The notes under the pieces are model-generated. The model did not search any database, was not told where the DNA came from, and worked only from the letters and a program-made list of their open reading frames with translations. Below, in pieces: positions 2,179 through 40,988 of a stretch of DNA of 64,000 nt. Source of the stretch: Candidatus Omnitrophota bacterium (GTDB taxonomy: Bacteria > Omnitrophota > Omnitrophia > Omnitrophales > Aquincolibacteriaceae); the NCBI GenBank assembly GCA_003140935.1, contig PLLJ01000042.1, positions 10,144-74,143 of the forward strand, read 5' to 3'. The position numbers were made by a program, and so were the translations under genes. Within the stretch, counting starts at the first letter, position 1. The number at the start of each line of letters is the position of its first letter.

Positions 2179-2237
2179 GGACGGTTCCGAGGGCGTCAAA
2201 AGATTTTTAAAAGGCAGGATTTCAAACGGAGTTTAAA

Positions 2238-3683: not shown

Positions 3684-3728
3684 CGTTATGCGGACGAGAA
3701 AAGATCTCCGCAGAATGATCCCTGCCCC

Positions 3729-6980: not shown

Positions 6981-6984
6981 AAAC

Positions 6985-9900: not shown

Positions 9901-10083
9901 TGGTCGCCCCTGGCGGTGACCATTATCGGGGGACTCATCAGTTCGACCATCCTGATCCTTTTCGTTTTGCCGGCACTTGTGATGATCACGGATGATATTC
10001 GAGAAACTTTTAAAGCTTTTTTTTCGGGTGTGTCTGAAAGAATACACGCCTTGTCAGCGAACAAAGTGATCCAGAGCCCTTAA
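6985..10083 (+). CDS. RND family efflux permease (AcrB/MdtC-like), second tandem copy
   Basis: The start MGLPSFSIKRPVFTIII parallels the first copy, and the ATG lies 5 nt after the stop of copy 1. The track ORF extends upstream in frame, but 6985 fits the family N-terminus. Confidence 0.85.
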   Translation: MGLPSFSIKRPVFTIIIYAAVIVMGLIALMRLKVELYQGQSQGIISIVVRARGGLPSQDVEKMITKPIEESVGTVAHMKSLYSSSREAESRVTMEFEPGTNMNFASLEIREKFARVKPLLPKEIEKPVIANYDDSQSAIMVFAVSSGTLAPEQIREIVDLKLKPIISRVDGVASVEVYGGRERKILVELDRDKMVAYNISIERVMDVLGQSNINLLAGNVGEGKYEFGIRSMGAFRSVDEIGDIGIKATRQSSIIPLKEIATIKDSYLEATDQARLNLEQNVTVYVKKASLANTLAVARNLNKVLDLFEAEHKENLKIVLVNDRAETIRRAIDDVKGALYLGLILTMGVIYLFIRNWVLSGIILIVIPCSLIATFIFMAACDISINVMTLSGLSLAIGILVDTAVVIMENIFSKKEKGCNDTQAIRDGSEEVWLPLLTSLLTMLVVFLPIIFIDKTIQLTYGGFAFTICISLIASFFTALMLIPMLIRQFGIASLNQHRPDTANNFIDKTRAKYVNAIRWCITRRWMVIPAVFGLCFFALFMLSKTPIDWPSSFEENEFAVVTFPLAGARLESNDQAMKKLEEILAKIPDITLFSTTVSKDDLRLFVRLKPARKRQYSKDEIMKIIDEQGNAAVKEIHSDYSLIVDEGAGSSETKKLVVNIFGQDGDELEKIAKEFANKMSKVQGLTNLVMTDLRKRPEYSLVVDKGKAAMYGLSVKRVADSMHAQVRGMRPTQFHELSKGEEIETITRLQAIYRQKLDDLGQIYVQTKESKQILLSEIANFYPSTGPQTIDRKEKHRYVFVKGDVKRPIEKIAIDVKKAVQDVKLPDDYYWRFGGGYEELMESKTQLAVALLITVFLVYMVMACLFENYLYPFLIMIKILLNFIGIWAALAITRKPLSTQVFIGMIMLAGYSVNAAILLVDHAIHLPAEQSKKERFIQAGVDRLRPILMTAIAAILGFLPMALSFGQASDLWSPLAVTIIGGLISSTILILFVLPALVMITDDIRETFKAFFSGVSERIHALSANKVIQSP

Positions 10084-10945: not shown

Positions 10946-11554
10946 ATGAAGAAGGTTAATAGCGGTATGACATTAGCGCTCGTTGCGTTGATGGTCGTCG
11001 GCTTTGGAGTTCCCGCTTTTGCGGCTGCTCCCGCGGCGAACGAGCTTGTGATCGCGGATTTTGATACCGGGGACAAGCCGAATAACATCGGTGGCGATTT
11101 CGGTGGATGGGACAAGGATCCGAACGATGAGTCCCAGGGATGCCAGATGTCTTTCGATACGGACGATAGCCAGGGGGATGCTGCCGGCTATTCGATTCGT
11201 CTCGATTACGATGTGGATTCTCCGAACCCGGCTTACAATGGTTTCTGGATGAAGCTGAACGGCGAGGATGCAACGGCTTACAACACTCTCAATTTCTACG
11301 TCAAGGGAGATGCCAAGGCCGGTTACACCAAGCGTTTCAAGATCGAGCTTAAGGACATGACGAACAAGCCTTCCGCTTATATCGTGAGCGGTGTCACGGA
11401 CCAGTGGCAAAAGATCTCGATCCCGTTCGAAAAGTTCCGTCGCATTGAAAACTGGAACTCTTTGAACGAGATTGTTTTTGTTTTCGACGATATCAACTCC
11501 AGTCCGAAGACCGGAAGCATTTTGATCGATCAGATCACGTTCTCGAAGCAATAA
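10946..11554 (+). CDS. Secreted protein with a CBM/CIA30-like beta-sandwich domain
   Basis: Strong RBS AAAGGAG. Signal peptide MKKVNSGMTLALVALMVVGFGVPAFAAAP. The downstream pattern (KIELKD...WQKISIPF...IVFVFDD...ILIDQITF) resembles carbohydrate-binding/CIA30-type beta-sandwich domains. Confidence 0.5.
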   Translation: MKKVNSGMTLALVALMVVGFGVPAFAAAPAANELVIADFDTGDKPNNIGGDFGGWDKDPNDESQGCQMSFDTDDSQGDAAGYSIRLDYDVDSPNPAYNGFWMKLNGEDATAYNTLNFYVKGDAKAGYTKRFKIELKDMTNKPSAYIVSGVTDQWQKISIPFEKFRRIENWNSLNEIVFVFDDINSSPKTGSILIDQITFSKQ

Positions 11555-11584
11555 TCGAGGCGTGTTGGAAGAAGTTGTTTCGAA

Positions 11585-11620
11585 GCAGCCCCGCTTTTAA
11601 AAGCGGGGCTGCTTTTTTTT
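11585..11620 (+). terminator. Rho-independent terminator
   Basis: gcagccccgc-ttttaaaa-gcggggctgc followed by tttttttt. Confidence 0.75.
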
Positions 11621-11865
11621 GTCCCGCATCCCTTTGAAGGCAGGATTTCAAGGACCTTCATGCGCGCCCTGAGACACCGGTGCGCATGCCTCCAACCCCG
11701 GGAGGGCTGGATGGGGGTGAAGTTCCCCGCGATCTCCGGGGTTAAAAGCCCGCGATTTCGGCCGATAATAAACGAGAGTGTCCTGACTTAGAATAGCTCT
11801 AGCACCTTGATGCTATTGATGTTAGGGTAGGTGCAGTACCTGGAGATGATAGAGGGGTATCCCCG

Positions 11866-13434
11866 ATGCAAAAGAACGACGGCATTTATGCCGTAAGTGT
11901 GAGCCGCGTATTGCCGGCCAAGCGTTGGCAGGTCCTGCGTCTGCTCACGCGCGTTCAGGATTTCCCGCGCTTTTTGCCCAGTATCCTGGAATGTAAGGTT
12001 CTTTCCCGGGAACGGAAACGCGTGATCAGTTCCTGGCTCGTAGAAATGGAAAAGATCCCGATCTCCTGGACAGAAGAAGAGATCCTGGATCTTCGCCATT
12101 TCATGATCCGTTTCCGGGCCCTGAAGGGTGACTTGGAGAGGTTCGAAGGCTTCTGGAAACTTGAGGAACATGCCTCCGGAGGCACCGAACTTTTTGTCGA
12201 AGCCACCCTCAAACTCGGCATTCCGGTATTCGAAGTGGTGGCGGGCGGGATCATCGCGGACAAGATCCGGAACTATTTTGATTCGCTCCTCAGGGCTTTT
12301 GAAGAGGAGTTATCCAAGCGCCGCTACCACAGGGTGAAAGACCGGCCCTCGCAACAGGTGGGCGGGTTCGCGGTAATCGGCCATCCTTACAATCTTCAAC
12401 ACCTCATTGATTTTTTCGAAGCCCACAAACAAGGCCGGACGATCCAGTCACCGGAATTTCTCGCCAAGATCTTTGAAGAGGCTCCTTCATTCGAAGCGGA
12501 CGCGATCCGGGAGTTTCGCAGTGCGAACGGCAAGACCGTCAATGGGTCCTTCATCGTCTGTAATATCATTCCCGATATGCTGGATATGGACATCGAGAAA
12601 GCGGTCCGTAAGGTCGTGGACGCCTGCAAACTCGCGGAGCGCTGCGGGTTCGGCATTGTCGCGCTGGGCGGTTTCACGTCGATCGCGGGCGAACGTTATG
12701 GGGACGAATTCCTTAAAAGGGTGCACATCCCCGTGACGACCGGCAACACGCTTACGGCCGCGCTCGCCGTCGAACAGGTGAAGAAGGCGGCGGCGCTCAT
12801 GGAGCTGGATCTTTCCCAGGCGAGCGTGACGATCCTGGGCGGGGCGGGTGATATCGGAAGCGCCTGCGCGCGCGGCCTGGCCGACAGGGTCCGGGAGATC
12901 ACGGTGACGAGCCGCACGGGAAAAAGTTTCGGCTGGATCAAGAAAGAGATCGCGAAAGCGGGAAAGGCCAAGGTCCGCACGAGTCTTAATAACCGCGCTG
13001 CCGTCAAGAATGCCGACATTGTAATCGCGGCCGCAAGTGCCCATAAATCGATCGTCGATGTTTCGGATTTCAAGCCCGGCGCCATCGTCTGCGACATCGG
13101 CTATCCGAAGAACATCTCCTATTCCAAAAGTGATCGTCAGGACATCCTGGTATTCTCAGGCGGCATTTGTGAGATCCCGTGCGAGTTCCGCACCTCGTTT
13201 GACCACAGTCTCCCCACACCGAAGGTCCTTTTCGGATGTTTTTCCGAGGCGATCGTGCTTGCGCTCGAGGAGCGCTACGAGCGTTTTTCTTGGGGGAAAG
13301 GAAACATCACCAAGGAAAAAATGGCGGAGATCCTCGGGTTAGCGGCCAAACACGGGTTCCATCCCGCTCCTTTCTTTTGGGGAGAACGGCTCTTATCGGA
13401 CGATGAAGTAAAAGCGATCAGGATCGAGGCATGA
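11866..13434 (+). CDS. Fusion protein: N-terminal SRPBCC (START/polyketide-cyclase-like) ligand-binding domain plus C-terminal acyl-ACP reductase (cyanobacterial AAR family) homologue
   Basis: The N-terminal 150 aa (YAVSVSRVLPAKRWQVLRLLTRVQDFPRFLP...) are SRPBCC-like. The C-terminal ~340 aa carry AAR hallmark motifs: FAVIGH, IVALGGFTSI, TTGNT, GGAGDIGSA, CDIGYPKN, FGCFSEAIVLALEERYERFSWGKGNITKEKMAEI, HGF. Confidence 0.75.
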   Translation: MQKNDGIYAVSVSRVLPAKRWQVLRLLTRVQDFPRFLPSILECKVLSRERKRVISSWLVEMEKIPISWTEEEILDLRHFMIRFRALKGDLERFEGFWKLEEHASGGTELFVEATLKLGIPVFEVVAGGIIADKIRNYFDSLLRAFEEELSKRRYHRVKDRPSQQVGGFAVIGHPYNLQHLIDFFEAHKQGRTIQSPEFLAKIFEEAPSFEADAIREFRSANGKTVNGSFIVCNIIPDMLDMDIEKAVRKVVDACKLAERCGFGIVALGGFTSIAGERYGDEFLKRVHIPVTTGNTLTAALAVEQVKKAAALMELDLSQASVTILGGAGDIGSACARGLADRVREITVTSRTGKSFGWIKKEIAKAGKAKVRTSLNNRAAVKNADIVIAAASAHKSIVDVSDFKPGAIVCDIGYPKNISYSKSDRQDILVFSGGICEIPCEFRTSFDHSLPTPKVLFGCFSEAIVLALEERYERFSWGKGNITKEKMAEILGLAAKHGFHPAPFFWGERLLSDDEVKAIRIEA

Positions 13435-13468
13435 GACTGGAGATCACAGACCCCAGGCTGAAGCGACC

Positions 13469-15778
13469 ATGCGTTCCCGTGCCTTCTTTTCGCCTCATGC
13501 CGGGAAAACCTTTTGGCTGCGGTCTTCAGTCTCCGGTCTTCAGTCTCCTCGGGTTCTTATGGGAACTTTAGCGCACGCTTTTCAATTCAACTGGTACGCG
13601 CTTCCCGTGGGAGGGATCGGCATCCTGATGTTCCTCACGGGATTCTTCATCTATCTCCAGAACCGCCGTTCCCCGGTGAACTTCTCTTTTTTCCTGATCT
13701 GTCTTTGCGGGATCCTTTGGCTCGTCGGGATCGCGGCGGTCTATGCGGCCTCCGATCCCAGTCTCGCGCTTTTGATCTACCGGCGCGTGAGTTTTCTCGG
13801 CGTGGCCTTCATATCTCCGTGTATCTATTGCTTTTCCGTGTTCTGGCTTGGCCGCTACAAGAAACAACGAGTACTGGTCTGGACCTTTTTCGCGACGAGC
13901 ACCGCGTTCTATCTGACAGGACTTGTTTCCGCCTCGAGTTTTCCGGGTATCTACCGCTATTTTTGGGGTTATTACCCGCAGTACGGTCCTGTGAACCGCT
14001 GGTTCCTCTTCTTTTTTCTTGTGGCCATTTTGACCGCGTTCTATAACTTTATCACCGCCTACCGGCGCGAATCCCCGGGTCTCCGCAAGAAACAGATCTC
14101 GTTCATCACGATGGCCTTCGTGGTCTCTTTCATCGGCATCTCGGATTTTGTTCCGAAACTGGTCTATAACCCCGTTTACCCGCTCGGATCCCTGTGCGTG
14201 TTTTTCTGGATGCTGGTCGTAGCTTACGCGATCATCCGCTATAAGGCGATGGATATCGAGACCGTTATCCACAAAACCCTTATGTGGCTGGCCACAACGA
14301 CCGCTGCGATCGTTCCGTTTGCCGCGCTTATTTACTGGACCCAGCGCTTCCGGGACCCCTCTTCTGCCTGGGGTTCGACGTTCTATTACCTTGCGGTCGC
14401 CATCGCATTCTATTTTTATTTCCGGTCGATCCAGCCCCGGCTCGACCATCTCTTCCAGCGTCAGAGGAGGAACCTGCTTGCGGTCATGACCCGGTTTTCC
14501 AGGGAACTGGTGCTTTTGAAGAATCTCCGTGATCTCCTGCAGAGTTTTGCCCGGATGCTCCGTCGCCAGCTTTATGTGCGCCGCCTTTCGGTCTTTCTGC
14601 TCGACGAAAAAAACGGCGAATATATTCCGGCCATCGCGAAAGGTCTGCGCAATCTTAAACCTTTCGCCAAGGACCATCCGTTCCTGGCCTGGCTTGAGAA
14701 AAAGGACGGGGTCGTGATGGGGGACCTTGTCAGTGCCGATCCTGAAGTCGAGACATTCAAAGGCGAGACCGAGGAATTTTTCCTTGCGACACAGGGGATG
14801 GTCGCGGTACCGCTCGTGCTGGGCGGGAAGCTTATCGGGGTGGTGAGTCTCGGCCGCAAGGCGAATCTGAAACCCTACCGGCCCAACGAGGTCCGGTTCC
14901 TTGCCGAGCTCAAGATCCCGGTGACGATCGCGTTCTCAAATTCCATGCAATATGAGAATATCAGCGAGCTTTATACCCAGGTCCGCGGGATGAGCGAGGA
15001 ACTCAAACGCTGGAATGTGGAACTGGAGCGTCGCGTGGGAGACCGGACACGGGAGCTCGTCAGGACCCAGGAGCAGTTGACCCAGGCCGAAAAGCTCGCG
15101 ACGCTGGGAACGCTCGCCGGCGGCGTAGCACATGAGATCAATAATCCGCTGACCGCGGTGCTGACGAACGCGCAGATCCTTAAGATGACCGCGGGCGAGG
15201 ACGTCAAGGAGTCGCTTGATCTCATCGAGGAAGGTGCGAAACGCTGCCAGGGGATCGTGCAGAAACTTATGAAATACGCCCGGAAAACCGCGGAAGAGGC
15301 GCCCCATAAGGACGTCGACTTGCGCGACGTGGTGAAAGGCACCTGCGCCCTTTTGGGTTTCCAGTTCCAGCAGGAGAATATCGTGATCGAGATGAAGCTC
15401 GGGGACGTGCAGGCCGTGAAGGGGATCGCGGGGGAGCTCGATCAAGTGCTTACGAACCTTCTCGTGAACGCCCGCGACGCCATTCAGGCTGCCCGGGTGA
15501 AAGGCAAGATCACGGTTGAAACGCGGGAGACTCCTGACGCGGTCGAGCTCATTGTGACAGACAATGGGATTGGCATCCCCAAGGAGAACCAGAAAAAGAT
15601 CTTTGATCCCTTCTTCACCACCAAGGACGTCGGCTCCGGCACCGGCCTCGGCCTTGCCGTCAGCTTCGGGATCTTGAAGCGCCACAACGCCGCCATCTCA
15701 GTTACCTCCGTCCCCGGCAAAGGCGCCACTTTTACTGTCCGGTTTCCTCTCGCCGTGCCCAAAAGCCTAAACACCTAA
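13469..15778 (+). CDS. Sensor histidine kinase: N-terminal 7TM-type membrane sensor domain, GAF, HisKA, HATPase_c
   Basis: Multiple TM helices end in the conserved YKAMDIETVIHKTL. A GAF-like region is followed by the H-box GGVAHEINNPL and by N, G1 (DNGIGIP) and G2 (GSGTGLGL) boxes. The start may instead be the ATG at 13559. Confidence 0.85.
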   Translation: MRSRAFFSPHAGKTFWLRSSVSGLQSPRVLMGTLAHAFQFNWYALPVGGIGILMFLTGFFIYLQNRRSPVNFSFFLICLCGILWLVGIAAVYAASDPSLALLIYRRVSFLGVAFISPCIYCFSVFWLGRYKKQRVLVWTFFATSTAFYLTGLVSASSFPGIYRYFWGYYPQYGPVNRWFLFFFLVAILTAFYNFITAYRRESPGLRKKQISFITMAFVVSFIGISDFVPKLVYNPVYPLGSLCVFFWMLVVAYAIIRYKAMDIETVIHKTLMWLATTTAAIVPFAALIYWTQRFRDPSSAWGSTFYYLAVAIAFYFYFRSIQPRLDHLFQRQRRNLLAVMTRFSRELVLLKNLRDLLQSFARMLRRQLYVRRLSVFLLDEKNGEYIPAIAKGLRNLKPFAKDHPFLAWLEKKDGVVMGDLVSADPEVETFKGETEEFFLATQGMVAVPLVLGGKLIGVVSLGRKANLKPYRPNEVRFLAELKIPVTIAFSNSMQYENISELYTQVRGMSEELKRWNVELERRVGDRTRELVRTQEQLTQAEKLATLGTLAGGVAHEINNPLTAVLTNAQILKMTAGEDVKESLDLIEEGAKRCQGIVQKLMKYARKTAEEAPHKDVDLRDVVKGTCALLGFQFQQENIVIEMKLGDVQAVKGIAGELDQVLTNLLVNARDAIQAARVKGKITVETRETPDAVELIVTDNGIGIPKENQKKIFDPFFTTKDVGSGTGLGLAVSFGILKRHNAAISVTSVPGKGATFTVRFPLAVPKSLNT

Positions 15779-15780
15779 AA

Positions 15781-17202
15781 ATGGATCCCTACAGTTTTTC
15801 AGCGCTTTGTTTTGTTTTTTGTTCGTTTTTTGTAGGCATTCTTGTATGGTTGAAACGCTTGGATCAAGTGGGAATGCTTTTCTTTTGGCATTCGATTTGT
15901 ATCTCCCTTTGGGGTGTTGGTTTCGCAATGGTGATTTCACCGGCAACTTCTTACGAAACAGCCCTATGGGCGGCTCGATCAGCTAATGGTGTAGTAGCAT
16001 TTATCCCCATAGCGTGGTTTCATTTTTCACTTACTTTGACAAATAAGTTGGAGCGTCGCAGAAGGGTTCTTTGGGTGCTTTATGGAGTTGCAATTATAAT
16101 TCTTTGTCTTTCATCAACCCCTTGGTTTATTCCTAATCTTTTTCCCATTTTAAATTTTAAGCACTATACACATGCAGGGCCTCTTTACACCCTTTTAACG
16201 TTAGTTTATTTTTTAACGGTACCTCTTGGCTTCTATGAATTGATTCAAAAAACTCGCGTAACTTCAGGAGAAGAAAAAAAACAGCTTCTCGGATTGCTCG
16301 TGGTTTCATTCCTGGGTTATTTGGGCGGTAGTTTAAGTTTTATACCAGTTTATGGCATTCCTTTCCCCCAGTATGGCTTATTTTTACTTCCCATCTTTCC
16401 TTTTGGGCTTGCTTTTGTCATGACTCGAACCAATCTTTTTGAAGTCGAACAATTGGCCCAAGCGGCGCACAGGGACAAACTCACAGCGATAGGCGTGCTT
16501 GCGGCGAGCATCAACCACGAGGTCAAGAATCCTCTTTTCATCATCAAAGGCCTTGCAGAAAATTGTTTGGAACGGCAGAAAGAAGGGATATTCCCGAGTA
16601 AGGAAAAAGCGCTTGAGAGCGCCAATGATGCCATGAAACGAAGCATGGAACAGGCCGATAGGGCCATGGATATCATCAAACGGCTTTCGCTTTTTGCCAA
16701 GGCTGGGATCGACAGCGAGATTAAATTCGAACCGGTCAAGGTCGCGCAGGTGATCGAGGATATTCTCCCGCTTGTTCGCTACGAGCTTGCGGCGTATGGT
16801 ATTGCACTCACGCGTGATTTACCGCCCGATCTTCCGGAGGTTCGTGCCGACCGGCGTTATCTTGAGGAGATCCTCTTTAACCTAATCGTGAATGCCTGCC
16901 AGGCGGTCAAAGAAACCGGTAAGCCGGGCGAGATCGTTATTCGCGCGGTATCTGAAGACGAAAAAGTTCGTGTAACCATTCAGGACAACGGCCCCGGAAT
17001 TCCCGCCGGCAAGCTCAAAGACGTCTTCCGCCCTTTTTACACGACGAAAGCCGAGGGCACCGGTCTCGGCCTTTACATTACCCAACAGCTCATTGAAAAG
17101 ATCCATGGCAGGATCGATGTCCGATCTGAAGTAGGGGTTAATACCGTTTTCTCCATTATTCTGGGGGCGAAGAATACCAGTTTGGAGAAAAATTTGAAGT
17201 AA
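15781..17202 (+). CDS. Sensor histidine kinase with 7TM-type sensor domain (no GAF), HisKA, HATPase_c
   Basis: Paralogous TM domain. H-box ASINHEVKNPL and G-boxes DNGPGIP / GTGLGL. Starts 3 nt after the HK1 stop. Lower GC than HK1. Confidence 0.8.
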   Translation: MDPYSFSALCFVFCSFFVGILVWLKRLDQVGMLFFWHSICISLWGVGFAMVISPATSYETALWAARSANGVVAFIPIAWFHFSLTLTNKLERRRRVLWVLYGVAIIILCLSSTPWFIPNLFPILNFKHYTHAGPLYTLLTLVYFLTVPLGFYELIQKTRVTSGEEKKQLLGLLVVSFLGYLGGSLSFIPVYGIPFPQYGLFLLPIFPFGLAFVMTRTNLFEVEQLAQAAHRDKLTAIGVLAASINHEVKNPLFIIKGLAENCLERQKEGIFPSKEKALESANDAMKRSMEQADRAMDIIKRLSLFAKAGIDSEIKFEPVKVAQVIEDILPLVRYELAAYGIALTRDLPPDLPEVRADRRYLEEILFNLIVNACQAVKETGKPGEIVIRAVSEDEKVRVTIQDNGPGIPAGKLKDVFRPFYTTKAEGTGLGLYITQQLIEKIHGRIDVRSEVGVNTVFSIILGAKNTSLEKNLK

Positions 17203-17271
17203 TTCATTCCATTACAGATGCACAAATATATACCGATACACTAAAGAGTAAAATTCAAACAAAGGTGGATT

Positions 17272-17640
17272 ATGCAAAAAAAGATACTTGTGGTAGATGA
17301 TGAGGAAATTTTAACTGCTACTTTTGTAAAGCTCCTTGAAACAGCGAGATACGATGTGTTGGTCGCATCTCGCGGTGAAGACGCCGTTGTTATGGCTGAG
17401 GAGGACGATTTTGATTTGATAATTTGTGATATCCGTATGCCTGGACAAGATGGAGTGAAAACCATCCAGCAGATTAGAAATCTTTGTGGGAAAAAAGAGA
17501 TTCCTGTGATTTTTATAACGGGCTATGCCGATGAAGTCTTGGAAAAAGAGGCTAATCGGCTTGGTCCCGTAGCGTATATTTACAAACCATTTGATGCTTT
17601 TAAGCTTTTAGATCTTATTAAGAGGGCAATTTCTAAATGA
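17272..17640 (+). CDS. Single-domain response regulator (CheY-like receiver, no output domain)
   Basis: ILVVDDE, an acidic pocket, a phospho-acceptor Asp in LIICDIRMPG, and a conserved T and K. RBS AGGTGG. Confidence 0.85.
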   Translation: MQKKILVVDDEEILTATFVKLLETARYDVLVASRGEDAVVMAEEDDFDLIICDIRMPGQDGVKTIQQIRNLCGKKEIPVIFITGYADEVLEKEANRLGPVAYIYKPFDAFKLLDLIKRAISK

Positions 17641-18659
17641 AAACGCTAGAACCGCCCAAAGTGTTTAACGCTTCTTTAAAGACACAGATACGTAAGTATC
17701 AAAAATATGCTAATGAAATTCGAGAAGAGCTTCAAAAAGCTCCTTTTGAGTGGGGACGGTATCAAAGCGTTTTTAACCAGGAAGTTAATATGGTCTTTTA
17801 TCGAATTATGGAATTTGAAAGGGATCAAATGAAGAGGGGGAGAGAAACAAGTGTTTATAAAATGAAGAAGCTTTTTTTGAATCATTTGCGCAAGGATTTT
17901 TTGTATGGCGATTATATCCGATGGAGTCTTGAAAAGCCCTACGGGTATGCGGGTGATTTCAAAATAATAGATGATATTTATAGGAATGCGCCACGGACAG
18001 AGGGTTTCGACCGTTTATATGACAATTATTTTCAAATGTCTTCCATTTCAGTCGCGGTCCGAAATCGTAAAGAAGATTTTAAAAAGCAAGTTCTGGAAAA
18101 TATCAATAATAAAAAAAATCAAAATATAAAAATTATGGATTTGGCATGTGGTCCGTGCGAGGAAGTCGTGGACATTTTTACATTTCCGTCTCAAATCGAT
18201 TTATCACGTGTCGAGTACCACTGTTACGATAACGACGAGCATGCAATCGAGTTTTCGAAAAAACGACTAGAAGGAATTTCGCAGGTCAAGTTCTTTAAAG
18301 AGAATGCTGTCCGACTTGCTCTCAAAAAAGATGTCGGCGCGTTTATTCCCCATCAATATGATGTGATTTATTCCACAGGTCTTTTTGATTATTTTGATTA
18401 CCGTATTTGCGTTCGCCTCGTCCAAAACTTAAAAAAACTGCTAAAGCCTGGTGGTTTTCTTGCAATTTCAGACGTGCGGGATAAATTTAGTAACCCCTCG
18501 GTTCATTTTATGGAATGGGTGGGGGATTGGAACTTAGTTTATCGCGATGATGAAAATTTTCGCCAAGTTTTTTTTGAGGCTGGGTTCAAAAAAGAAAATT
18601 TAAAAATCGGCTATGAACAGCAAGGGATTTTGCAATACATTTACGCTCGTAATCACTGA
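17637..18659 (+). CDS. Class I SAM-dependent methyltransferase with a ~150 aa N-terminal helical extension
   Basis: Motif I IMDLACGPCEE, the post-I acidic residue in YDND, DVIYSTGLFDYF, and LKPGGFLAISDV. Its start overlaps the stop of the receiver gene (ATGA). The DNA is very AT-rich. Confidence 0.75.
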   Translation: MKTLEPPKVFNASLKTQIRKYQKYANEIREELQKAPFEWGRYQSVFNQEVNMVFYRIMEFERDQMKRGRETSVYKMKKLFLNHLRKDFLYGDYIRWSLEKPYGYAGDFKIIDDIYRNAPRTEGFDRLYDNYFQMSSISVAVRNRKEDFKKQVLENINNKKNQNIKIMDLACGPCEEVVDIFTFPSQIDLSRVEYHCYDNDEHAIEFSKKRLEGISQVKFFKENAVRLALKKDVGAFIPHQYDVIYSTGLFDYFDYRICVRLVQNLKKLLKPGGFLAISDVRDKFSNPSVHFMEWVGDWNLVYRDDENFRQVFFEAGFKKENLKIGYEQQGILQYIYARNH

Positions 18660-18670
18660 GGAGATTTTCT

Positions 18671-20962
18671 TTGCCAGAAAGCCTTTTTGCGTATACCGGA
18701 CTCATTAATTTCATCACGAGTTTTGGACTAGGAATTTTTCTCTTAATAGCCAAGTATCGTTCTCACCTCTGCCAAGCTTTTGTCCTTTTTTGTTTCAGCG
18801 TGGCCTATTGGAGCATACATTATTTCTGGTGGCTCTCAGAAGCGAATTCTGAAATGGCATTGTATCTCATACGCCAAGCGATGATAGGTGCCATCTTTAT
18901 TCCCGCAACGTATACATATTTTACCTACCAACTAATTGAAAAAAAAGATTTCAAATGGGTCCATTCCCTCAATGTAGGGCTTGTAGTTATTTTTTTATTT
19001 TTTGCGATGTCCCCTTTTTTCATAGCTTCTCTGAAGCAACAACTTTTTTTTAAATTCTGGCCAGTTCCCGGTCCATTGTTTCATTTTGTATTAGCCTATT
19101 TTTCGATTAATGTTTTATATGCTCATCTGCTTTTGTGGAATGCATATAAAAAATCTTTTGGAATTAAGCGACTTCATGTGCTTTATGTCTTTTTAGGCAC
19201 AGCCGTTGGTTTTTTCGGTGGATCAACTAACTACTTCCTTTGGTATGGAATTCCCATTCCTCCATATTTGAATATTTTGGTTTGTATTTTTATAATTACA
19301 GTTGCTTATGCAATCGGCAAGTACAAGCTCATGGACATTCGACTCATTATTCGCCGCACCATTGTTTTTGCGGGATTATTCGGTGTGATCATGGCAGCAG
19401 TCGGAATTGTAACAGCTTTAACTCAAAGCTATGTCGGGCAGTTTTTTGGAATGGGGCCAACAGTACGGCAGCTTCTTAGCATTCTTATAGCGATTTTTCT
19501 TTTTGATCCGACTCGGAAATTGTTGACCAATCTCACCGACAAATATCTTTTTCAGAAGAAGTATGATTATCACAAATTGCTGAAGGATGCGTCGCGGGGG
19601 ATGTCGAATATTGAGTCGCTGGAGCGTCTCCTGGGGCTCGTGGTGCACTTTATCACCATGAAGATGCGGGTGAAGAATGCGGCGGTGCTGATGCGGGAGG
19701 GGACAAGCGACCAGTATCAGCTCGTTTACCAGCGGGGGTTTGACAAAAAGTTCCTGACGCTCACGCTTTATAAGAACGATCCCCTGATCCACTATCTCGA
19801 AAACCACCAGGAGGCAGTGGATATCGAGCGGATCAAGGAGCAGGTGGAGGTTGCATCGTACCGGCGGGACAAAAGCGAGAAGGCCTATGATTACGAGGCG
19901 ATCCGGGAGCGGATGAACCAGCTTCAGGCGAGTTGTTGCGTGCCGAGCTTTTTGGGGCGCGAGCTCCGGAACGTCCTTATGCTGGGAGAGAAAAAATCCG
20001 GCGAATATTATTCGAACGAGGACTTAAATCTCCTTTATACGCTCGCGCAGGAATCCTCGATCGCGATCGAGAACGCGCGGCTTTATGACGAGGCCCTCCG
20101 GAAGTCCCATGAGCTGGAGCATATCAACGAGCAGCTCGAATATTCCAAAGAGCTTCTCATGAAAGCCCTGCAGGAGGCCGAGGGGGCGAATAAACAGCTA
20201 CAGGACACGCAGGCCCAGCTCATTCACGAGCAGAAGATGGCGACCCTGGGCCGGCTGGCCGCGTCGGTGGGGCATGAAGTGAATAACCCGCTCACCATTC
20301 TTTCCATGAACGTGTCGCGCGTGATTCTGAAACACCGCAAAAACAAAGACATGAAAGTGACAGAGATCCTGGACGTCTTCGACAAGATGGAGAAGAATAT
20401 CGAACGTATCAAGGCGGTGGTGAACACGCTGACCGGTCTTTTGAAGAAATCGGAAAAAGGGAAGTTCGAGCCGCTGTCACTCAAGTTGATCCTGGAGGAG
20501 ACCTTGCCGCTCGTGCAGTTCCAGACTTATCTCGACAATCTCTCCGGGACAGAGGTCGATTTCAACGTGCCGGGGAACGTCCCGCTGATCCGTGGAGACC
20601 TGGAACGCCTGCAAGAGGTTTTCCTGAACCTTTTCATCAATGCGTATCACGCTATGGCCGGCAAGCGGCACCGCAAGATCGGGGTCCAGGCCGAGATCGA
20701 TCCCAAGGACCCGAACATGGTCGCGATCCATTTCAGGGACAACGGCTCGGGCATGACCGAGGACGTCATGAAGAAGGTTTTTAATTACGGGTTTACGACC
20801 AAAGCGCCCGGGAAAGGGTCGGGACTCGGGCTTTACATGTGCAAATACATCATCGAATTGCACGGCGGGACCATCACGGTCACAAGCAAGCTCGGGGAGG
20901 GGACAACCTTCACGCTGACGCTGCCCATTTATTCAGAGACGCCGGCATTAAAGCAGGCTTGA
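18671..20962 (+). CDS. Sensor histidine kinase: 7TM-type sensor domain, GAF, HisKA, HATPase_c (third paralogue)
   Basis: Probable TTG start after GGAGA. The TM region ends with YKLMDIRLIIRRTI. H-box SVGHEVNNPL and G-boxes DNGSGM / GSGLGL. The N-terminal half is AT-rich and the C-terminal half GC-rich. Confidence 0.8.
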   Translation: MPESLFAYTGLINFITSFGLGIFLLIAKYRSHLCQAFVLFCFSVAYWSIHYFWWLSEANSEMALYLIRQAMIGAIFIPATYTYFTYQLIEKKDFKWVHSLNVGLVVIFLFFAMSPFFIASLKQQLFFKFWPVPGPLFHFVLAYFSINVLYAHLLLWNAYKKSFGIKRLHVLYVFLGTAVGFFGGSTNYFLWYGIPIPPYLNILVCIFIITVAYAIGKYKLMDIRLIIRRTIVFAGLFGVIMAAVGIVTALTQSYVGQFFGMGPTVRQLLSILIAIFLFDPTRKLLTNLTDKYLFQKKYDYHKLLKDASRGMSNIESLERLLGLVVHFITMKMRVKNAAVLMREGTSDQYQLVYQRGFDKKFLTLTLYKNDPLIHYLENHQEAVDIERIKEQVEVASYRRDKSEKAYDYEAIRERMNQLQASCCVPSFLGRELRNVLMLGEKKSGEYYSNEDLNLLYTLAQESSIAIENARLYDEALRKSHELEHINEQLEYSKELLMKALQEAEGANKQLQDTQAQLIHEQKMATLGRLAASVGHEVNNPLTILSMNVSRVILKHRKNKDMKVTEILDVFDKMEKNIERIKAVVNTLTGLLKKSEKGKFEPLSLKLILEETLPLVQFQTYLDNLSGTEVDFNVPGNVPLIRGDLERLQEVFLNLFINAYHAMAGKRHRKIGVQAEIDPKDPNMVAIHFRDNGSGMTEDVMKKVFNYGFTTKAPGKGSGLGLYMCKYIIELHGGTITVTSKLGEGTTFTLTLPIYSETPALKQA

Positions 20963-21044
20963 GACTTAACTTGTTAGCAGTACAATAGAGCGTCAGAGTA
21001 TCAAAGTTTGAATGTGATGCGAGCACGGCAGGCCGAGGGCTCTT

Positions 21045-21404
21045 ATGCAAAAAAAGATTCTGATCGTCGATGACGAGGCCGGGATCGTCCAGGAGATCAA
21101 GGAGTTCCTGGAGGAGGAGGGCTACGAGGTCCGCACGGCGGACTCGGCCAAGGCGGGGATCGAACTGATCGAAGAGATCCGTCCGGATGTGGTTATGATC
21201 GACGTAAAATTGCCGGACGCCTCTGGAAACGAAGTGCTTCGCGCCTGCAAAGAAAAATCTCCCAAGACCAAGACCATCATGGTGACGGGATACGTGGACC
21301 AGCATGTGATGGACGAAGCGGAATTGATCGGCCGCGACACATTCCTCCAAAAACCTTTCAATCTCGAGAAGATCCTTGAAGAAATTAATAAGCTGCTGGC
21401 ATAA
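21045..21404 (+). CDS. Single-domain response regulator (receiver only)
   Basis: ILIVDDE ... VVMIDVKLPD ... TIMVTGY ... K. Confidence 0.85.
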   Translation: MQKKILIVDDEAGIVQEIKEFLEEEGYEVRTADSAKAGIELIEEIRPDVVMIDVKLPDASGNEVLRACKEKSPKTKTIMVTGYVDQHVMDEAELIGRDTFLQKPFNLEKILEEINKLLA

Positions 21405-21441: not shown

Positions 21442-21463
21442 GGGACCAAGACGGGTCCCTTTT
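21442..21463 (+). terminator. Probable intrinsic terminator after the kinase/receiver cluster
   Basis: gggacc-aagacg-ggtccc followed by tttt. Confidence 0.5.
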
Positions 21464-22880: not shown

Positions 22881-25232
22881 ATGTTTCGTTACCTCGCAGA
22901 GTTCATACAGCGTTTTCGCTGGCCAATCTTGCTGGTCATGATGGTCAGTGTCTACTACTTCGGGATCGCGGTCTCGAAGCTCTCGGTCGATCCTTCCATG
23001 GAAACGCTTTTTATCAAAAAATCTCCCGAATATCAGTATTATCAGCAGTATCGCATTAAATATGGCAGTGATCAGATGATCGCCGTCGCTATGTCGACAG
23101 AAAATCTTTTCACCCCCGCCAATCTCAAGACCCTCAAAAGCATCACCGACGGTATTGCCAGCTACACCCAGGTGGAACGTGTGATCAGTCTCACTAACGC
23201 GATGGACATCAAACATAAGATGCTCGGTGTGAAGACCGTGCCGGCGCTGGAGGGGGTGTTCGAAGGCGCGAGGTCGATCGAAGATGTCAAAAAAGAAGTG
23301 CTCCGGAATGAGCTCTACCTCAGCAATATTGTTTCCAAGGACGGGAAGATCGCTAATATTCTCGTTTATTTGAAGCCCGCCGAAAAAAACAGCGCTGCGG
23401 CCAATGGCGCGTTCATCGAGGCGTTGAAAAGTTACCTGGATGATTTTGAGCAGCCCGGTGTGAAGTTTTACATGGCCGGCGCGCCGGTCGAACAGTATGA
23501 GTTCATTGACCTGATCCATCGCGACCAAATGGTCTTCGTGCCGGTCATCACGGCCATTCTGATCTTGATGACGTACCTGATCTACCGCAGTTTTGCGTGC
23601 GTGGTCCTTTCCATGTCCATCGTTTTCACGACGCTTGTCTGGACGCTCGGAACGATCTCTCTTCTGGGGCAGGAGCTCAATCTCATGACCTCGCTTCTTG
23701 CCCCGGTGATCATGATCGTCTCGGTGATCAATTCAACGTACCTGATCAATCTCTTTTTTGAGATCCGGCCGCATCACAAGAGCCTTAAAGAGGCGGTAAA
23801 TGTGACGATCCAGCAACTCGGGATGCCGTGCTTTCTCACGCATTTTACGGCGGTCCTCGGATTTGGTTCGCTCGCGCTCTCCCCGATCCCGGCCATCCAG
23901 AGTTTCGGGATCTACGCGGCGCTTGGGACCTTTTATTCTTACATTGTCGAGCTCGTGATGACGACTCTGCTTCTTCCGATCCTGCCGTACCGGCCGGTGG
24001 ATCCCCTCGCTTCGAGTGAGTCGCATTTTTTCAACAAGGTCCTGCTGGGATTTCTCGAGAAACTTGAATTCCGCTGGAAATGGTGGATCCTGATCGTGAC
24101 GGGACTCGTCCTGATCCTTTCATTCCAAGGCGTCCAGAAGCTTGAGGTGGATACCAATATCGTGAAGCAGATGAAGCCGAACCTGCCGCTTGCGATCGCG
24201 ACCCGGTTCATCGACGAACATTTGACCGGCGTTTATTCGCTCGGGTTCGTGTTCCGCCGCAAGGACGGGGAGAGTATGGTGGACGCGAAGACGCTGGGCA
24301 TGCTGGACCAGTTCAAGACTTATCTGGAGAATGAGCCCGGGATCGCGAAGGTCAACAGCATCACAACGCTTGTCAAAAAGATCAATGAGGCGCGTAAAAA
24401 CGATCCCGAGGCTTACCGGATCCCGAGAAATCCCATGATGCTCAATCTCTATTTCAAAGGATTAGCCAGATCGAACGATCCGGAGCTTTGGAAACTGGTG
24501 TCGCATGATTTTAAGGAGGTGCGCATGGAGGCGCGTATGCGCGCGATCGGAACGACGAGGGGAGCGCTTTTGGAAGAAAGAGTCCGGGAGTATCTCCAGG
24601 AACATATGAGTGAATTTTTCGAATACAAACTGACGGGAAATGTGGTGCTTTTGGGAAAGATCGCAAAAAGCCTGGTTCATGAACAGGCCCAAAGTTTCGC
24701 CTTTGCGTTCATCTCCATCCTGATCGTGATCATCTTGATCTTCCGGTCCATTCCGCTCGGGCTTTTGGCCGCCATTCCCAACCTGATTCCGATCCTCGCG
24801 GTGTACGGGATCATGGGGTTCGCGGGGATCGAGCTTTCCACCGCGACCGCGATGATCGCGAGCATTGTGCTGGGCCTCGTGGTGGACGCCTCGATCCAGT
24901 TCCTTTACCGGTTCCGCAAAGAGTTCCAGAACCGCTCTCACTACATTCAGTCATTGCATCACACCTACCGCAACATGGGCCAATCGATGGTCGTCTCGAC
25001 CCTGATCCTGTGCATGGGATTCGCCTCGAGCGTATGCGCAAATTTCCGCATTACCGTGCATTTCGGGATGCTAACGAGCCTGACGATCTTCCTGGCGCTT
25101 ATTTGCTCGCTTCTGGTCATGCCGGCGATCCTGATCATGATGAAACCTTTCGGTCCCCAGCGCCTTTTCAAGCGCAAGGTCCAGGAAAATGATCCTTTGT
25201 ACAGATCTCAGGATCCCGTCAAGCACGTTTGA
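22881..25232 (+). CDS. MMPL/RND-superfamily exporter (HpnN-like, 12 TM with two large periplasmic loops)
   Basis: 783 aa with the duplicated 6-TM-plus-loop architecture of MMPL/SSD transporters. Confidence 0.8.
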   Translation: MFRYLAEFIQRFRWPILLVMMVSVYYFGIAVSKLSVDPSMETLFIKKSPEYQYYQQYRIKYGSDQMIAVAMSTENLFTPANLKTLKSITDGIASYTQVERVISLTNAMDIKHKMLGVKTVPALEGVFEGARSIEDVKKEVLRNELYLSNIVSKDGKIANILVYLKPAEKNSAAANGAFIEALKSYLDDFEQPGVKFYMAGAPVEQYEFIDLIHRDQMVFVPVITAILILMTYLIYRSFACVVLSMSIVFTTLVWTLGTISLLGQELNLMTSLLAPVIMIVSVINSTYLINLFFEIRPHHKSLKEAVNVTIQQLGMPCFLTHFTAVLGFGSLALSPIPAIQSFGIYAALGTFYSYIVELVMTTLLLPILPYRPVDPLASSESHFFNKVLLGFLEKLEFRWKWWILIVTGLVLILSFQGVQKLEVDTNIVKQMKPNLPLAIATRFIDEHLTGVYSLGFVFRRKDGESMVDAKTLGMLDQFKTYLENEPGIAKVNSITTLVKKINEARKNDPEAYRIPRNPMMLNLYFKGLARSNDPELWKLVSHDFKEVRMEARMRAIGTTRGALLEERVREYLQEHMSEFFEYKLTGNVVLLGKIAKSLVHEQAQSFAFAFISILIVIILIFRSIPLGLLAAIPNLIPILAVYGIMGFAGIELSTATAMIASIVLGLVVDASIQFLYRFRKEFQNRSHYIQSLHHTYRNMGQSMVVSTLILCMGFASSVCANFRITVHFGMLTSLTIFLALICSLLVMPAILIMMKPFGPQRLFKRKVQENDPLYRSQDPVKHV

Positions 25233-27292: not shown

Positions 27293-27365
27293 GCTGGTGT
27301 AGCTCAGGGGTAGAGCAGCTGTTTTGTAAACAGCGGGTCGGGGGTTCAAATCCCTCCACCAGCTC
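27293..27365 (+). tRNA. tRNA-Thr (anticodon UGU)
   Basis: Hand-folded cloverleaf: acceptor GCTGGTG/CACCAGC, D-arm GCTC-AGGGGTA-GAGC, anticodon stem GCTGT/ACAGC with loop TTTGTAA, T-arm GGGGG-TTCAAAT-CCCTC. Confidence 0.8.
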
Positions 27366-27373
27366 GTTTTTGG

Positions 27374-27454
27374 GCTGGAGTGGGGAACCTGAAGCGAAGG
27401 TCGTCAAGACCAAGCGGAATGTCGAAAGCATTGGGCTTTCGACCTCCACCAGCT
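27374..27454 (+). ncRNA. tRNA-like element or tRNA remnant; 81 nt; its last 12 nt (cctccaccagct) match the 3' end of the tRNA-Thr
   Basis: An acceptor-like 5' end GCTGGAG pairs imperfectly with CACCAGC. There are internal hairpins GGTC-gtcaa-GACC and GTCGAAAGC-attgg-GCTTTCGAC, but no canonical cloverleaf by hand. Confidence 0.25.
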
Positions 27455-27475
27455 GATTTTAGTTTGATTTTTGAT

Positions 27476-27559
27476 GGGGAGTTGCCCGAGCGGCCAAAGG
27501 GGACAGACTGTAAATCTGTTGGCTTATAGCCTTCAATGGTTCGAATCCATTACTCCCCA
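27476..27559 (+). tRNA. tRNA-Tyr (anticodon GUA), class II with a long variable arm
   Basis: Acceptor GGGGAGT/ACTCCCC. Anticodon stem ACAGA/TCTGT with loop CTGTAAA. Variable arm GGCTTATAGCC. T-arm AATGG-TTCGAAT-CCATT. Discriminator A. Confidence 0.75.
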
Positions 27560-40984: not shown

Positions 40985-40988
40985 GGCC

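Follow-up and report, generated by a model that had tools for sequence, protein, structure and literature searches.

A candidate lipid-type signal-and-receptor operon of Omnitrophota with a PhcB-superfamily methyltransferase and three 7TM sensor kinases

Positions 11866–21404 on the plus strand of the window (the whole stretch of DNA that was analysed, 64,000 nucleotides) can, with middling confidence, be read as a single operon and as the local copy of a signalling cluster that spans Omnitrophota, a phylum of uncultivated bacteria, and is laid out like the Ralstonia phcBSRQ operon. Most likely it encodes a lipid-type signal-and-receptor circuit, previously undescribed. In the scheme which we propose, and for which we see about equal grounds for belief and for doubt, a methyltransferase (MT) would produce a signal that is methylated and hydrophobic, the 7TM-GAF kinase of the neighbouring gene (HK3) would sense it, and a receiver (REC1) would gate the synthase. 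The features involved are listed in Table 1.

Table 1. Features of the cluster and its flanks, with positions in the window
Feature	Coordinates	Strand	Description	Basis
Upstream hairpin	11582..11615	+	Strong, terminator-like, 15-bp stem and T-run; ends the gene before it and sets the 5' boundary of the putative operon	
Reductase-like gene	11866..13434	+	SRPBCC (Polyketide_cyc) lipid-binding domain fused to acyl-ACP-reductase-like NAD(P) domain	Pfam
HK1	13469..15778	+	7TM(+2TM)-GAF-HisKA-HATPase kinase, class U	Pfam (bits: HisKA_7TM 49.2, GAF 30.8, HisKA 53.6, HATPase_c 91.5); 7TM-domain NJ tree
HK2	15781..17202	+	7TM-HisKA-HATPase kinase without GAF, class M	Pfam (bits: HisKA_7TM 49.6, HisKA 31.6, HATPase_c 86.1; GAF none); 7TM-domain NJ tree
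Low-GC3 island 1	15781..16440	+	Coincides exactly with the HK2 membrane sensor module	
REC1	17272..17640	+	Single-domain receiver, proposed MT regulator	Pfam (Response_reg only, 91 bits)
Low-GC3 island 2	17272..19510	+	REC1, MT and the HK3 membrane module up to about residue 280	
MT	17637..18659	+	PhcB-superfamily class I SAM methyltransferase, proposed signal synthase	Pfam, hhalign, AF2
HK3	18671..20962	+	7TM(+2TM)-GAF-HisKA-HATPase kinase, class D, proposed receptor	Pfam (bits: HisKA_7TM 33.2, HATPase_c 84.4); synteny; class D clade
REC2	21045..21404	+	Single-domain receiver 3' of HK3	Pfam (Response_reg only, 94 bits)
Downstream hairpin	21442..21459	+	Hairpin followed by T-run; probable operon end	

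All six genes that a sequence-only reading had described between 13469 and 21404 were found at their coordinates on the plus strand (translations and Pfam), and the make-up it gave is borne out: three HisKA_7TM histidine kinases, two receiver-only proteins and one class I SAM methyltransferase. The true operon start lies 5' of that span, at the SRPBCC-acyl-ACP-reductase-like gene. The upstream hairpin is the sole inverted self-match found in the region by self-comparison. Promoter-like matches across the cluster, including any for a separate MT promoter, do not exceed chance level, and intergenic spacing is 2–82 bp; a recent insertion of MT with a promoter of its own is thus not supported.

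Since dozens of species share this gene arrangement, it goes far beyond what chance would give. Among 51 evaluable species-representative loci, nearly all from Omnitrophota, a HisKA_7TM gene with either a kinase or an HD-GYP output stands directly 3' of MT in 45, and a single-domain receiver stands directly 5' in 35; the REC-MT junction measures −4 to +9 bp in 30 of 39 loci. This comparison of neighbourhoods speaks to the suggestion that homologues of the REC-MT pair might never co-occur with such kinases: they nearly always do, and MT is an integral, conserved member of the signalling cluster. The reported ATGA overlap of the REC1 end with the MT start, indicating translational coupling, is confirmed by direct reading. 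MT followed by a sensor kinase is the order throughout the superfamily, with differing sensor domains: a PhcB-like MT precedes a MASE8-like histidine kinase, a cNMP-MT precedes a MASE8 histidine kinase, a PilZ-MT precedes HisKA_7TM, and a PilZ-PilZ-MT has GAF histidine kinases on both flanks. In many Omnitrophota loci, a GAF-HD-GYP or 7TM-GAF-HD-GYP protein takes the equivalent position.

MT scores above the Pfam cut-offs for Methyltransf_31/12/25. Its helical N-terminal extension of ~150 residues, noted earlier, is reproduced by an AF2 model (pLDDT 89), in which residues 14–158 are all-helical ahead of the Rossmann core; this extension is conserved. PhcB is the Ralstonia/Cupriavidus synthase of a 3-hydroxy-fatty-acid methyl-ester quorum-sensing signal. 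Profile comparison shows the MT family and PhcB to be homologues: in hhalign, at probability 99.5% and E 9.2e-23, the family profile aligns with a 468-aa MT encoded in a Paraburkholderia operon of the order MT-HK-RR-RR, and the two have motifs outside the SAM core in common (KPxGYAGD, RNR, GLFDY and NP..ME..W.L.YR). Homologues 65–92% identical to the Paraburkholderia protein occur in Paraburkholderia, Cupriavidus and Massilia under the names 'extracellular factor 3-hydroxypalmitic acid methyl ester biosynthesis protein' or 'Regulatory protein', and the JGI name of one Omnitrophota MT-family member is also one of these. Identity of MT to PhcB-family proteins is merely ~24–26% over 220 columns, and the ~200-residue N-terminus of PhcB is missing. 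Small-molecule chemistry is suggested by the fold, and PKS-embedded MT domains are also among the tblastn matches. The nearest relatives of MT that are not of 340-aa length are PilZ-MT fusions, and sister MT proteins carry PilZ or cNMP-binding domains in cis, instead of the REC1 in trans found here. PDB 3ocj, an uncharacterised 'putative exported protein' of Bordetella parapertussis, is 18% identical to MT and was not retrieved by the sequence profile. No substrate, product or ligand is on record for any MT-family member or any HisKA_7TM domain.

HK1, HK2 and HK3 each fall into a separate orthologous class, namely U (the class adjoining the reductase gene), M, and D (the class always directly 3' of MT). 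By their 7TM domains, HK1 clusters with the upstream kinases of loci L017 and L040, and HK2 with the 7TM-KIN genes of L040, L038 and L053. The three kinases had been described as paralogues; they are indeed related, but at 25–31% identity they are distant and not recent duplicates, and sequence comparison identifies them as ancient paralogues. The Y-K-x-MDI motif ascribed to all three is present in HK1 (RYKAMDIETVIHKT) and HK3 (KYKLMDIRLIIRRT), but HK2 has only a degenerate version (TRTNLFEVEQLAQ). The H-box of HK1 is HEINNPL at residue 555; in HK2, where the sensor is fused straight onto the kinase, it lies at residue 246. HK3 has the start codon TTG and the ribosome-binding site GAGGAG. Its HisKA (23.5) and GAF_3 (23.2) scores fall under the Pfam cut-offs, both domains being backed by orthologues, and aromatic, Pro, Asn and Gly residues of its membrane module are invariant.

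In both receivers the canonical DD/D/T/K residues are intact (translations), and REC1 has the ribosome-binding site AGGTGGA. Receivers directly 5' of MT are of the REC1 class in 34 of 34 cases, and those 3' of class-D kinases are of the REC2 class in 27 of 32. REC2 is likely the phosphoacceptor of HK3.

GC3 falls to 0.23–0.45 in island 1, versus 0.55–0.70 in the kinase part of HK2, and to ~0.35 in island 2, versus 0.75–0.78 in the GAF/kinase part of HK3; the dip of island 2 is repeated in the relatives L065, L067 and L064. Between the window and L067, identity is 92% for the cytoplasmic part of the kinase, 69% for MT and 69.5% for the membrane module. Over 37 loci, and in correlations which include shared phylogeny, MT distances follow those of the adjacent 7TM domains (r 0.60, partial r 0.54) and, more weakly, those of the kinase cores (r 0.43, partial r 0.30). 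Mean distances across the phylum are 0.47 for MT, 0.59 for 7TM and 0.66 for the kinase core. MT is thus unusually conserved, which a housekeeping-type metabolite would explain no less well than a private signal that diversifies.

Based on these data, we hypothesize that MT would use SAM to methylate a hydrophobic acceptor, probably fatty-acyl-derived, and so yield a membrane-permeant signal, which may act between cells or within the producer only. The HK3 membrane module (7TM+2TM, then GAF) may bind this product and thereby set the kinase activity, with phosphate presumably passing to the receiver-only REC2 and/or REC1. REC1 would bind MT and tune its activity, a feedback on signal production for which the PilZ or cNMP-binding domains fused to sister MTs would be the cis equivalent. 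The reductase-like enzyme, HK1 and HK2 may together make up an accessory branch for lipids that has sensors of its own. Besides the PhcB homology, this scheme is favoured by the conserved gene order, by MT distances tracking 7TM distances better than those of the kinase cores, and by a lipid context that comprises the reductase-like gene, FadL/TodX channels, split-PigE-like reductases and a REC-HMG-CoA reductase fusion. Given the homology to PhcB, the methylated product more probably serves as input ligand for the sensor encoded just 3' of MT than as the end point of the pathway. The earlier idea that MT is the real output of the array therefore stands in part: the fusions in its sisters support an enzyme under the control of signalling proteins, but a terminal output is less likely than an input ligand.

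The Phc system of Ralstonia/Cupriavidus (phcB-phcS-phcR-phcQ) likewise combines a PhcB-superfamily MT gene, a membrane sensor kinase gene immediately 3' and then receivers without DNA-binding domains, and like the present cluster it encodes no DNA-binding regulator (PMC11960443). PhcB and PhcS co-diverge by signal type (PMC11960443), and the PhcQ receiver is suspected of modulating PhcB (PMC6989110). The kinase cores belong to the same HisKA subtype, with 28% identity between that of HK2 and a PhcS-like kinase. Apart from the low identity and shorter N-terminus of MT, the present cluster differs in its HisKA_7TM(+GAF) sensor, which has no detectable relation to the PhcS-like sensor (hhalign probability 0.3%), in the dedicated receiver gene translationally coupled 5' of MT, in two extra 7TM kinases and the acyl-ACP-reductase-like gene, and in its host phylum (Omnitrophota, versus Betaproteobacteria for Phc); a PhcA-type regulator was not seen here. 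Another fatty-acid-derived signal system to which the cluster may be likened is DSF/Rpf of Xanthomonas, with the synthase RpfF, the hybrid kinase RpfC and the REC-HD-GYP protein RpfG. The RpfC receiver domain binds and restrains RpfF, as cited in PMC6989110. The Rpf output is an HD-GYP c-di-GMP phosphodiesterase, which recalls the HD-GYP proteins of many Omnitrophota loci, whereas the operon in the window has no HD-GYP gene; moreover, RpfF is a crotonase-family enzyme and not a methyltransferase, and the sensors are without homology.

Instead of serving cell-cell signalling, the cluster might maintain lipid or envelope homeostasis, MT being a terminal effector that methylates a membrane lipid or precursor, and the 7TM kinases monitoring membrane or lipid state in an intracellular feedback; MT would then be switched by REC1~P, or by c-di-GMP/cNMP in the fusion proteins. 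The strong phylum-wide conservation of MT fits this view, as do the regulatory-domain fusions, which mark a controlled output enzyme, and a lipid context of the acyl-ACP-reductase-like gene, a REC-HMG-CoA reductase fusion and nearby MMPL/sterol-sensing transporters. We consider it unlikely, though a serious contender: PhcB, the sole characterised relative, makes a secreted signal; FadL/TodX outer-membrane channel genes directly 5' of MT in three loci (L016, L049, L054) suggest a hydrophobic molecule traversing the outer membrane; and a single genome can hold more than one paralogous circuit (L023/L028, L026/L045), which is more typical of signal-receptor pairs.

Receptor adaptation appears distinctly improbable. 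MT, controlled by REC1 or PilZ, would here have the neighbouring 7TM-GAF receptor, or else a receiver, as its methylation substrate, analogous to CheR or to c-di-GMP-MapZ-CheR1, and MT does adjoin a 7TM-GAF protein regardless of output domain. In Pseudomonas aeruginosa chemoreceptor methylation, the second-messenger-binding PilZ protein MapZ regulates the SAM methyltransferase CheR1 via direct binding (bioRxiv 10.1101/814665), which resembles the PilZ-MT fusions; as a protein-methylation precedent for PilZ control of a methyltransferase, it was counted against reading MT as a signal synthase. However, MT lies outside the CheR family, its weak similarity to the CheR SAM domain staying below threshold (Pfam 16.6 bits, cut-off 27), and its specific homology is to PhcB, a small-molecule MT. 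The cluster lacks chemotaxis proteins, and no demethylase, deamidase, MCP, CheA or CheW was found in any locus compared; the CheR-like adaptation role raised by the sequence-only reading is not supported. Since the downstream sensors come, superfamily-wide, from unrelated families (MASE8, 7TM, GAF hybrids), a shared protein substrate is also less parsimonious. There is very little probability that MT is a functionally unrelated passenger within the kinase array. The deviant GC3 of REC1, MT and the sensor segments (~0.35 versus 0.6–0.8) could suggest a foreign origin, but the low-GC3 island spans the kinase sensor modules too and recurs in relatives, start and stop codons overlap, and the REC-MT-7TM order is kept in dozens of species. 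The synteny data effectively refute this explanation.

The reductase-like gene, placed by the proposed signal circuit in an accessory branch, opens the cluster in its conserved long form; it adjoins the class-U kinase on the 5' side in ~12 other species and is present in merely ~12 of ~30 loci having enough upstream sequence. Its product scores 173 bits against TIGR04058 AcACP_reductase, under the equivalog cut-off of 449.7, and 170 bits against the PigE N-terminal domain. Residues 170–501 match the cyanobacterial acyl-ACP reductase (AAR, PDB 6jzq) end to end (E 6.9e-41), and FGCFSEA lines up with FACFAEA of 6jzq in a Cys-containing FxCFxEA stretch. Unlike AAR and the PigE reductase domain (prodigiosin MAP branch), with both of which it aligns, this product has an N-terminal SRPBCC fusion and is encoded inside a two-component operon; the aldehyde-deformylating oxygenase partner of AAR is absent here. 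The product of an acyl-ACP reductase is an aldehyde, which is no obvious MT substrate. Some loci carry a split-PigE-like reductase with an aminotransferase and a GNAT, the PigE-like aminotransferase scoring 481 bits, and in one paralogous locus the REC-HMG-CoA reductase fusion lies 3' of MT. The MMPL/sterol-sensing transporters are found close to the cluster in the window, in L065 and in L072.

Between 11.8 and 21.5 kb of the window lie seven tightly packed genes on the plus strand (see table), encoding an SRPBCC-reductase protein, three histidine kinases (HK1, HK2, HK3), two receivers (REC1, REC2) and a class I SAM methyltransferase (MT). All three kinases score above the gathering cut-off of HisKA_7TM (Pfam PF16927, 28.6 bits) and continue with HisKA/HATPase_c after the 7TM module, which identifies them as HisKA_7TM kinases. 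This agrees with the sequence-only reading, which had described three kinases with a 7TM sensor, two of them with GAF domains (by Pfam, HK1 has GAF, HK3 a region resembling it, and HK2 no GAF). The Y-K-x-M-D-I motif that it had assigned to all three is present in HK1 and HK3, and HK2 displays only a degenerate form. REC1 and REC2 are single-domain CheY-like receivers in which Pfam finds Response_reg and no further domain, confirming that they carry no DNA-binding output; their phospho-residues, as read from the translations, are intact (D9/D10, D53, T83/T81 and K105/K103). The stop codon of REC1 overlaps the start of MT in the sequence ATGA, and MT residues 14-158 are all-helical ahead of the Rossmann core (AlphaFold model, pLDDT 89); both the overlap and the helical N-terminal region of this methyltransferase had been recognized correctly. 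HK3 starts with TTG, six bases past a GAGGAG site and 11 bp behind the MT stop. A 3-sequence structure prediction of its membrane module (pLDDT 56) was too poor for a fold search.

Features of the cluster and placed methyltransferase fusions in related loci (L070, L071, L072, L075)
Feature	Position	Strand	Remarks
Terminator	11582-11615		15-bp stem; upstream bracket of the seven genes
SRPBCC-reductase gene	11866-13434	+	N-terminal SRPBCC lipid-binding domain and reductase-like part
HK1	13469-15778	+	HisKA_7TM 49.2 bits; GAF present
HK2	15781-17202	+	HisKA_7TM 49.6 bits; without GAF
REC1	17272-17640	+	Response_reg only, 91.4 bits
MT	17637-18659	+	Class I SAM methyltransferase (Pfam)
HK3	18671-20962	+	HisKA_7TM 33.2 bits; GAF-like region
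REC2	21045-21404	+	Response_reg only, 93.6 bits
Hairpin and T-run	21442-21459		Downstream bracket of the seven genes
P0242 (PilZ-MT)	L071 8001-9368		PilZ-MT fusion
P0243 (PilZ-MT)	L070 307-1653		PilZ-MT fusion
P0328 (cNMP-MT)	L072 6001-7536		N-terminal cNMP-binding domain
P0285 (PilZ-PilZ-MT)	L075 6001-7947		N-terminal PilZ domains

Promoter-like matches in the region were no commoner than chance, hence the operon boundaries rest on gene spacing and the two hairpins. Rfam and tRNA scans of the window returned only two tRNAs at 27.3-27.6 kb, unrelated to the cluster: tRNA-Thr(TGT) and tRNA-Tyr(GTA), located in a low-GC intergenic stretch (27293-27560). Pairwise identity is 25-31% among the three kinases and 30% between the two receivers. 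Recent paralogy or gene conversion among the kinases was rejected on the basis of this low identity, the lack of DNA self-similarity, and their placement in separate orthologous clades.

Full-length MT homologues (55-60% identical) number in the hundreds, and many residues are invariant both in the core and in the helical extension. A species-level scan (one genome per species, loci annotated with the window's own domains) found 56 MT loci, nearly all in Omnitrophota MAGs. A HisKA_7TM gene starts within 50 bp of the MT stop in 45 of the 51 loci with enough downstream sequence, and a single-domain receiver ends at the MT start in 35 of the 51 with enough upstream sequence, in line with the expectation that the receiver-methyltransferase pair accompanies such kinases in other genomes. 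The REC-MT junction measures -4 to +9 bp in 30 of 39 cases, 13 of which show the 4-bp overlap. That MT is a passenger gene in a kinase array is effectively excluded. The output of the 7TM-GAF protein after MT is usually a kinase and in some loci an HD-GYP domain; hence what stays constant next to MT is the membrane sensor rather than the output. In a neighbour-joining tree, the 7TM modules form three classes, U (adjoining the reductase, as HK1), M (without GAF, as HK2) and D (after MT, as HK3). Receivers upstream of MT are REC1-like without exception (34/34), and those following the class-D kinase are REC2-like in 27 of 32 cases. About 12 loci share with the window a long form of the cluster that is extended upstream by the SRPBCC-reductase gene and another 7TM-GAF kinase; one of them (L040) has an architecture identical to that of the window, including the extra GAF-less kinase and rmlC.

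As a reference for the PhcB family, which provides the methyl-ester signal synthase of Ralstonia and Cupriavidus, we used a Paraburkholderia graminis homologue rather than Ralstonia PhcB itself, and checked the family via named homologues. A translated plasmid search yielded an operon encoding a methyltransferase (468 aa), a kinase (445 aa), a receiver (134 aa) and a receiver protein (344 aa). In Paraburkholderia, Cupriavidus, Massilia and relatives, homologues of this methyltransferase (65-92% identical) bear the name 'extracellular factor (EF) 3-hydroxypalmitic acid methyl ester biosynthesis protein' or 'Regulatory protein'; JGI annotated an Omnitrophota family member with the same EF biosynthesis-protein name. 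The Omnitrophota MT family aligns with the P. graminis protein over 220 columns (hhalign probability 99.5%, E 9.2e-23), and motifs outside the SAM-binding core are common to both (KPxGYAGD, RNR, GLFDY and NP..ME..W.L.YR). Judged from sequence, this clearly argues for homology of MT and PhcB, if only at the level of the superfamily (about 24% identity). Searched against PDB sequences, the MT profile gave nothing significant.

Among 1.84 billion representative proteins, MT has 5085 relatives at E <= 1e-3 and 585 at E <= 1e-30. The closest relatives of different length are PilZ-MT fusions (E 1e-139 and 1e-133) which keep all family motifs; remoter ones are PilZ-PilZ-MT and cNMP-binding-MT proteins. 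In both placed cases (2/2) the PilZ-MT gene is followed by a HisKA_7TM gene after 6-24 bp, after the cNMP-MT gene comes a MASE8-type hybrid kinase, and the PilZ-PilZ-MT gene lies between two GAF hybrid kinases. From these domains and neighbours, two rules hold superfamily-wide: a signal-receiving domain (REC, PilZ or cNMP) precedes MT or is fused to it, and a membrane sensor kinase of variable sensor family comes after MT.

To our knowledge, quorum sensing of the methyl-ester (Phc) type has been described only in Ralstonia and its near kin within the Burkholderiales. In the searchable literature (on HisKA_7TM, PF12147 and Omnitrophota quorum sensing) we found no description of the cluster, no HisKA_7TM ligand, and no PhcB relatives outside Burkholderiales. 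The synthase of the Phc system is a PhcB-family SAM methyltransferase, to which MT is related at the level of the superfamily; MT lacks the N-terminal ~200 aa of PhcB. In Phc the sensor kinase gene directly follows the methyltransferase, as it does in the window (11-bp gap) and in the phc-like operon of Paraburkholderia (1 bp). The sensors, however, differ: comparison of the class-D 7TM profile with the N-terminal 236 residues of the PhcS-like protein gives an hhalign probability of 0.3%, the latter showing only a weak match to MASE8. The kinase cores are 28% identical. Receivers without a DNA-binding domain are likewise common to both systems, namely REC1 and REC2 here and PhcR, PhcQ and ChpA in Phc (PMC11960443). 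PhcB and PhcS have diverged together according to the type of signal (PMC11960443); for PhcQ, an action on PhcB is suspected, and the receiver of RpfC binds the synthase RpfF (PMC6989110). The Phc signal is a 3-hydroxy fatty acid methyl ester with output via the LysR regulator PhcA, and no LysR-type gene was seen among the scanned ORFs of the window. Overall, the cluster shares with Phc the synthase superfamily and the operon logic, but differs in the receptor domain, in the proposed gating of the synthase by its own receiver or by a second messenger, in the added lipid enzymes, and in the phylum.

A Phc-like circuit is the most economical reading of the cluster, and we consider it about equally likely to hold or to fail. 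MT would make a methylated hydrophobic molecule, the membrane module encoded by the next gene (HK3) would sense this product, and phosphate would flow to the receiver-only proteins, with REC1 (or PilZ/cNMP in cis) setting the activity of MT. Over 37 loci, the distances of MT follow those of the adjoining 7TM modules (r 0.60; with the kinase core controlled for, partial r 0.54) more closely than those of the kinase cores (r 0.43, partial r 0.30). Window and L067, the most module-divergent close relative, are 92% identical in the cytoplasmic part of HK3, as compared to 69% in MT, 69.5% in the membrane module, and 75% in REC1. Such co-variation of MT with the 7TM module may be taken as supporting but non-decisive evidence for the Phc-like circuit. 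The main rival, a loop of intracellular lipid homeostasis, draws support from the strong conservation of MT, and from the lipid and MMPL context of the cluster; we regard it as unlikely. Methylation of a receptor in the style of CheR or MapZ-CheR1 is possible but poorly supported, and in our view distinctly improbable. The adaptation role analogous to CheR that had been considered for MT finds no support: MT does not belong to the CheR family by fold or sequence, and MCP, CheA/CheW or CheB/CheD partners were found neither in the window cluster nor among the recurrent neighbours of the 56 loci.

Third-position GC (GC3) drops to about 0.35 in two islands of the cluster, 15781-16440 (HK2 sensor module) and 17272-19510 (REC1, MT and the HK3 membrane module), compared with 0.55-0.9 in the kinase portions of these genes and over the remainder of the window. 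The transitions are abrupt and coincide with domain junctions. The dip recurs in the independent relatives L065, L067 and L064 (much weaker in L001), hence an assembly chimera or other artefact of this contig was rejected; synonymous sites between these loci are saturated. Amino acid composition of membrane domains was likewise dismissed, as the 7TM module of HK1 has a GC3 of 0.68, and low values extend to MT and REC1, which are soluble. Either selection or recurrent exchange of the REC-MT-sensor module would maintain the dip.

The window itself belongs to an Omnitrophota genome, its TypA protein having its best named matches (77-81% identity) solely in Candidatus Omnitrophica/Omnitrophota. 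Omnitrophota are mostly ultra-small, possibly host-dependent bacteria. A wider proposal, which we advance tentatively and hold to be somewhat doubtful, is a phylum-wide autoinducer system in which a PhcB-like MT would produce a methylated lipid signal for a new class of 7TM-GAF receptors. Control of the synthase would be post-translational, through a phospho-receiver of its own (c-di-GMP or cNMP in the fusions), and the REC-synthase-sensor module would evolve and be exchanged as one specificity unit, marked by the conserved low-GC3 island. If true, Phc-type signalling chemistry would extend to a distant, uncultivated phylum, and further still via the PilZ/cNMP-MT superfamily, whose members always adjoin sensor kinases. 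The HisKA_7TM sensor domain would gain its first candidate ligand source, and a signal synthase gated by a receiver or second messenger, so far only suspected for PhcQ and PhcB, would gain a concrete case. The parts of the cluster are small, soluble or expressible, which opens the hypothesis to heterologous expression without cultivation.

Residues 170-501 of the SRPBCC-reductase product align with cyanobacterial acyl-ACP reductase (AAR; PDB 6jzq, E 6.9e-41), including an FxCFxEA stretch, which in AAR holds the catalytic cysteine, and also with the reductase domain of PigE. The TIGR04058 match of 173 bits stays below the equivalog cut-off of 449.7. In contrast to the cyanobacterial alkane pathway with its aldehyde-deformylating oxygenase (ADO), the window contains no ADO gene, and the reductase is fused to SRPBCC. 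In three loci (L004 1614-4101, L006 1608-4108, L023 3587-6100) a PigE-like class III aminotransferase (481 bits) and a 375-379-aa GNAT protein are encoded after the SRPBCC-reductase gene and before that of a 1160-aa hybrid 7TM kinase. This arrangement matches a split-PigE logic from thioester via aldehyde to amine, and the inserted genes hint at an amine or N-acyl version of the chemistry.

Other genes recur near MT. FadL/TodX outer-membrane channels occur in 6 loci, directly upstream of MT in L016, L049 and L054; a double receiver and a GAF-HD-GYP protein are further recurrent neighbours. A divergently transcribed XRE-type HTH-cupin regulator recurs in 12 loci and closes the cluster in 12 species (e.g. 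L050 14466-15104, minus strand); it is a candidate for the transcriptional output, with no counterpart seen in the window. L028, the second MT locus of the Omnitrophota genome JAUYMS01 that also contains L023, has a receiver-HMG-CoA reductase fusion (10980-12572; Response_reg 93.5 bits, HMG-CoA_red 287 bits) after MT instead of a 7TM kinase, which would put an isoprenoid enzyme under phosphorylation control. In L067, a GIY-YIG nuclease gene (4564-4875) lies between the class-D kinase and REC2, an insertion that could be related to recombination at the locus.

Directly upstream of the window cluster is an RND efflux operon (151-10083) encoding an outer-membrane factor, an HlyD-type adaptor and two tandem AcrB-family pumps, possibly tied to export of a hydrophobic signal. 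Downstream, an MMPL transporter with sterol-sensing domain (HpnN-like) is found both in the window (22881-25232) and in L065 (6222-8573), and another such transporter lies near the cNMP-MT locus (L072 1-789). Farther along the window, a 1661-aa kinase with at least 6 PAS domains, a single-domain receiver (40989-41366) and a GAF-ANTAR protein (together 35999-42120) appear to form a two-component system of their own, whose output would be an RNA-binding antiterminator. A REC-PAS-GGDEF-EAL protein (27925-30081), located 6.5 kb downstream of the cluster, may provide a link to c-di-GMP, given the HD-GYP and PilZ variants elsewhere.
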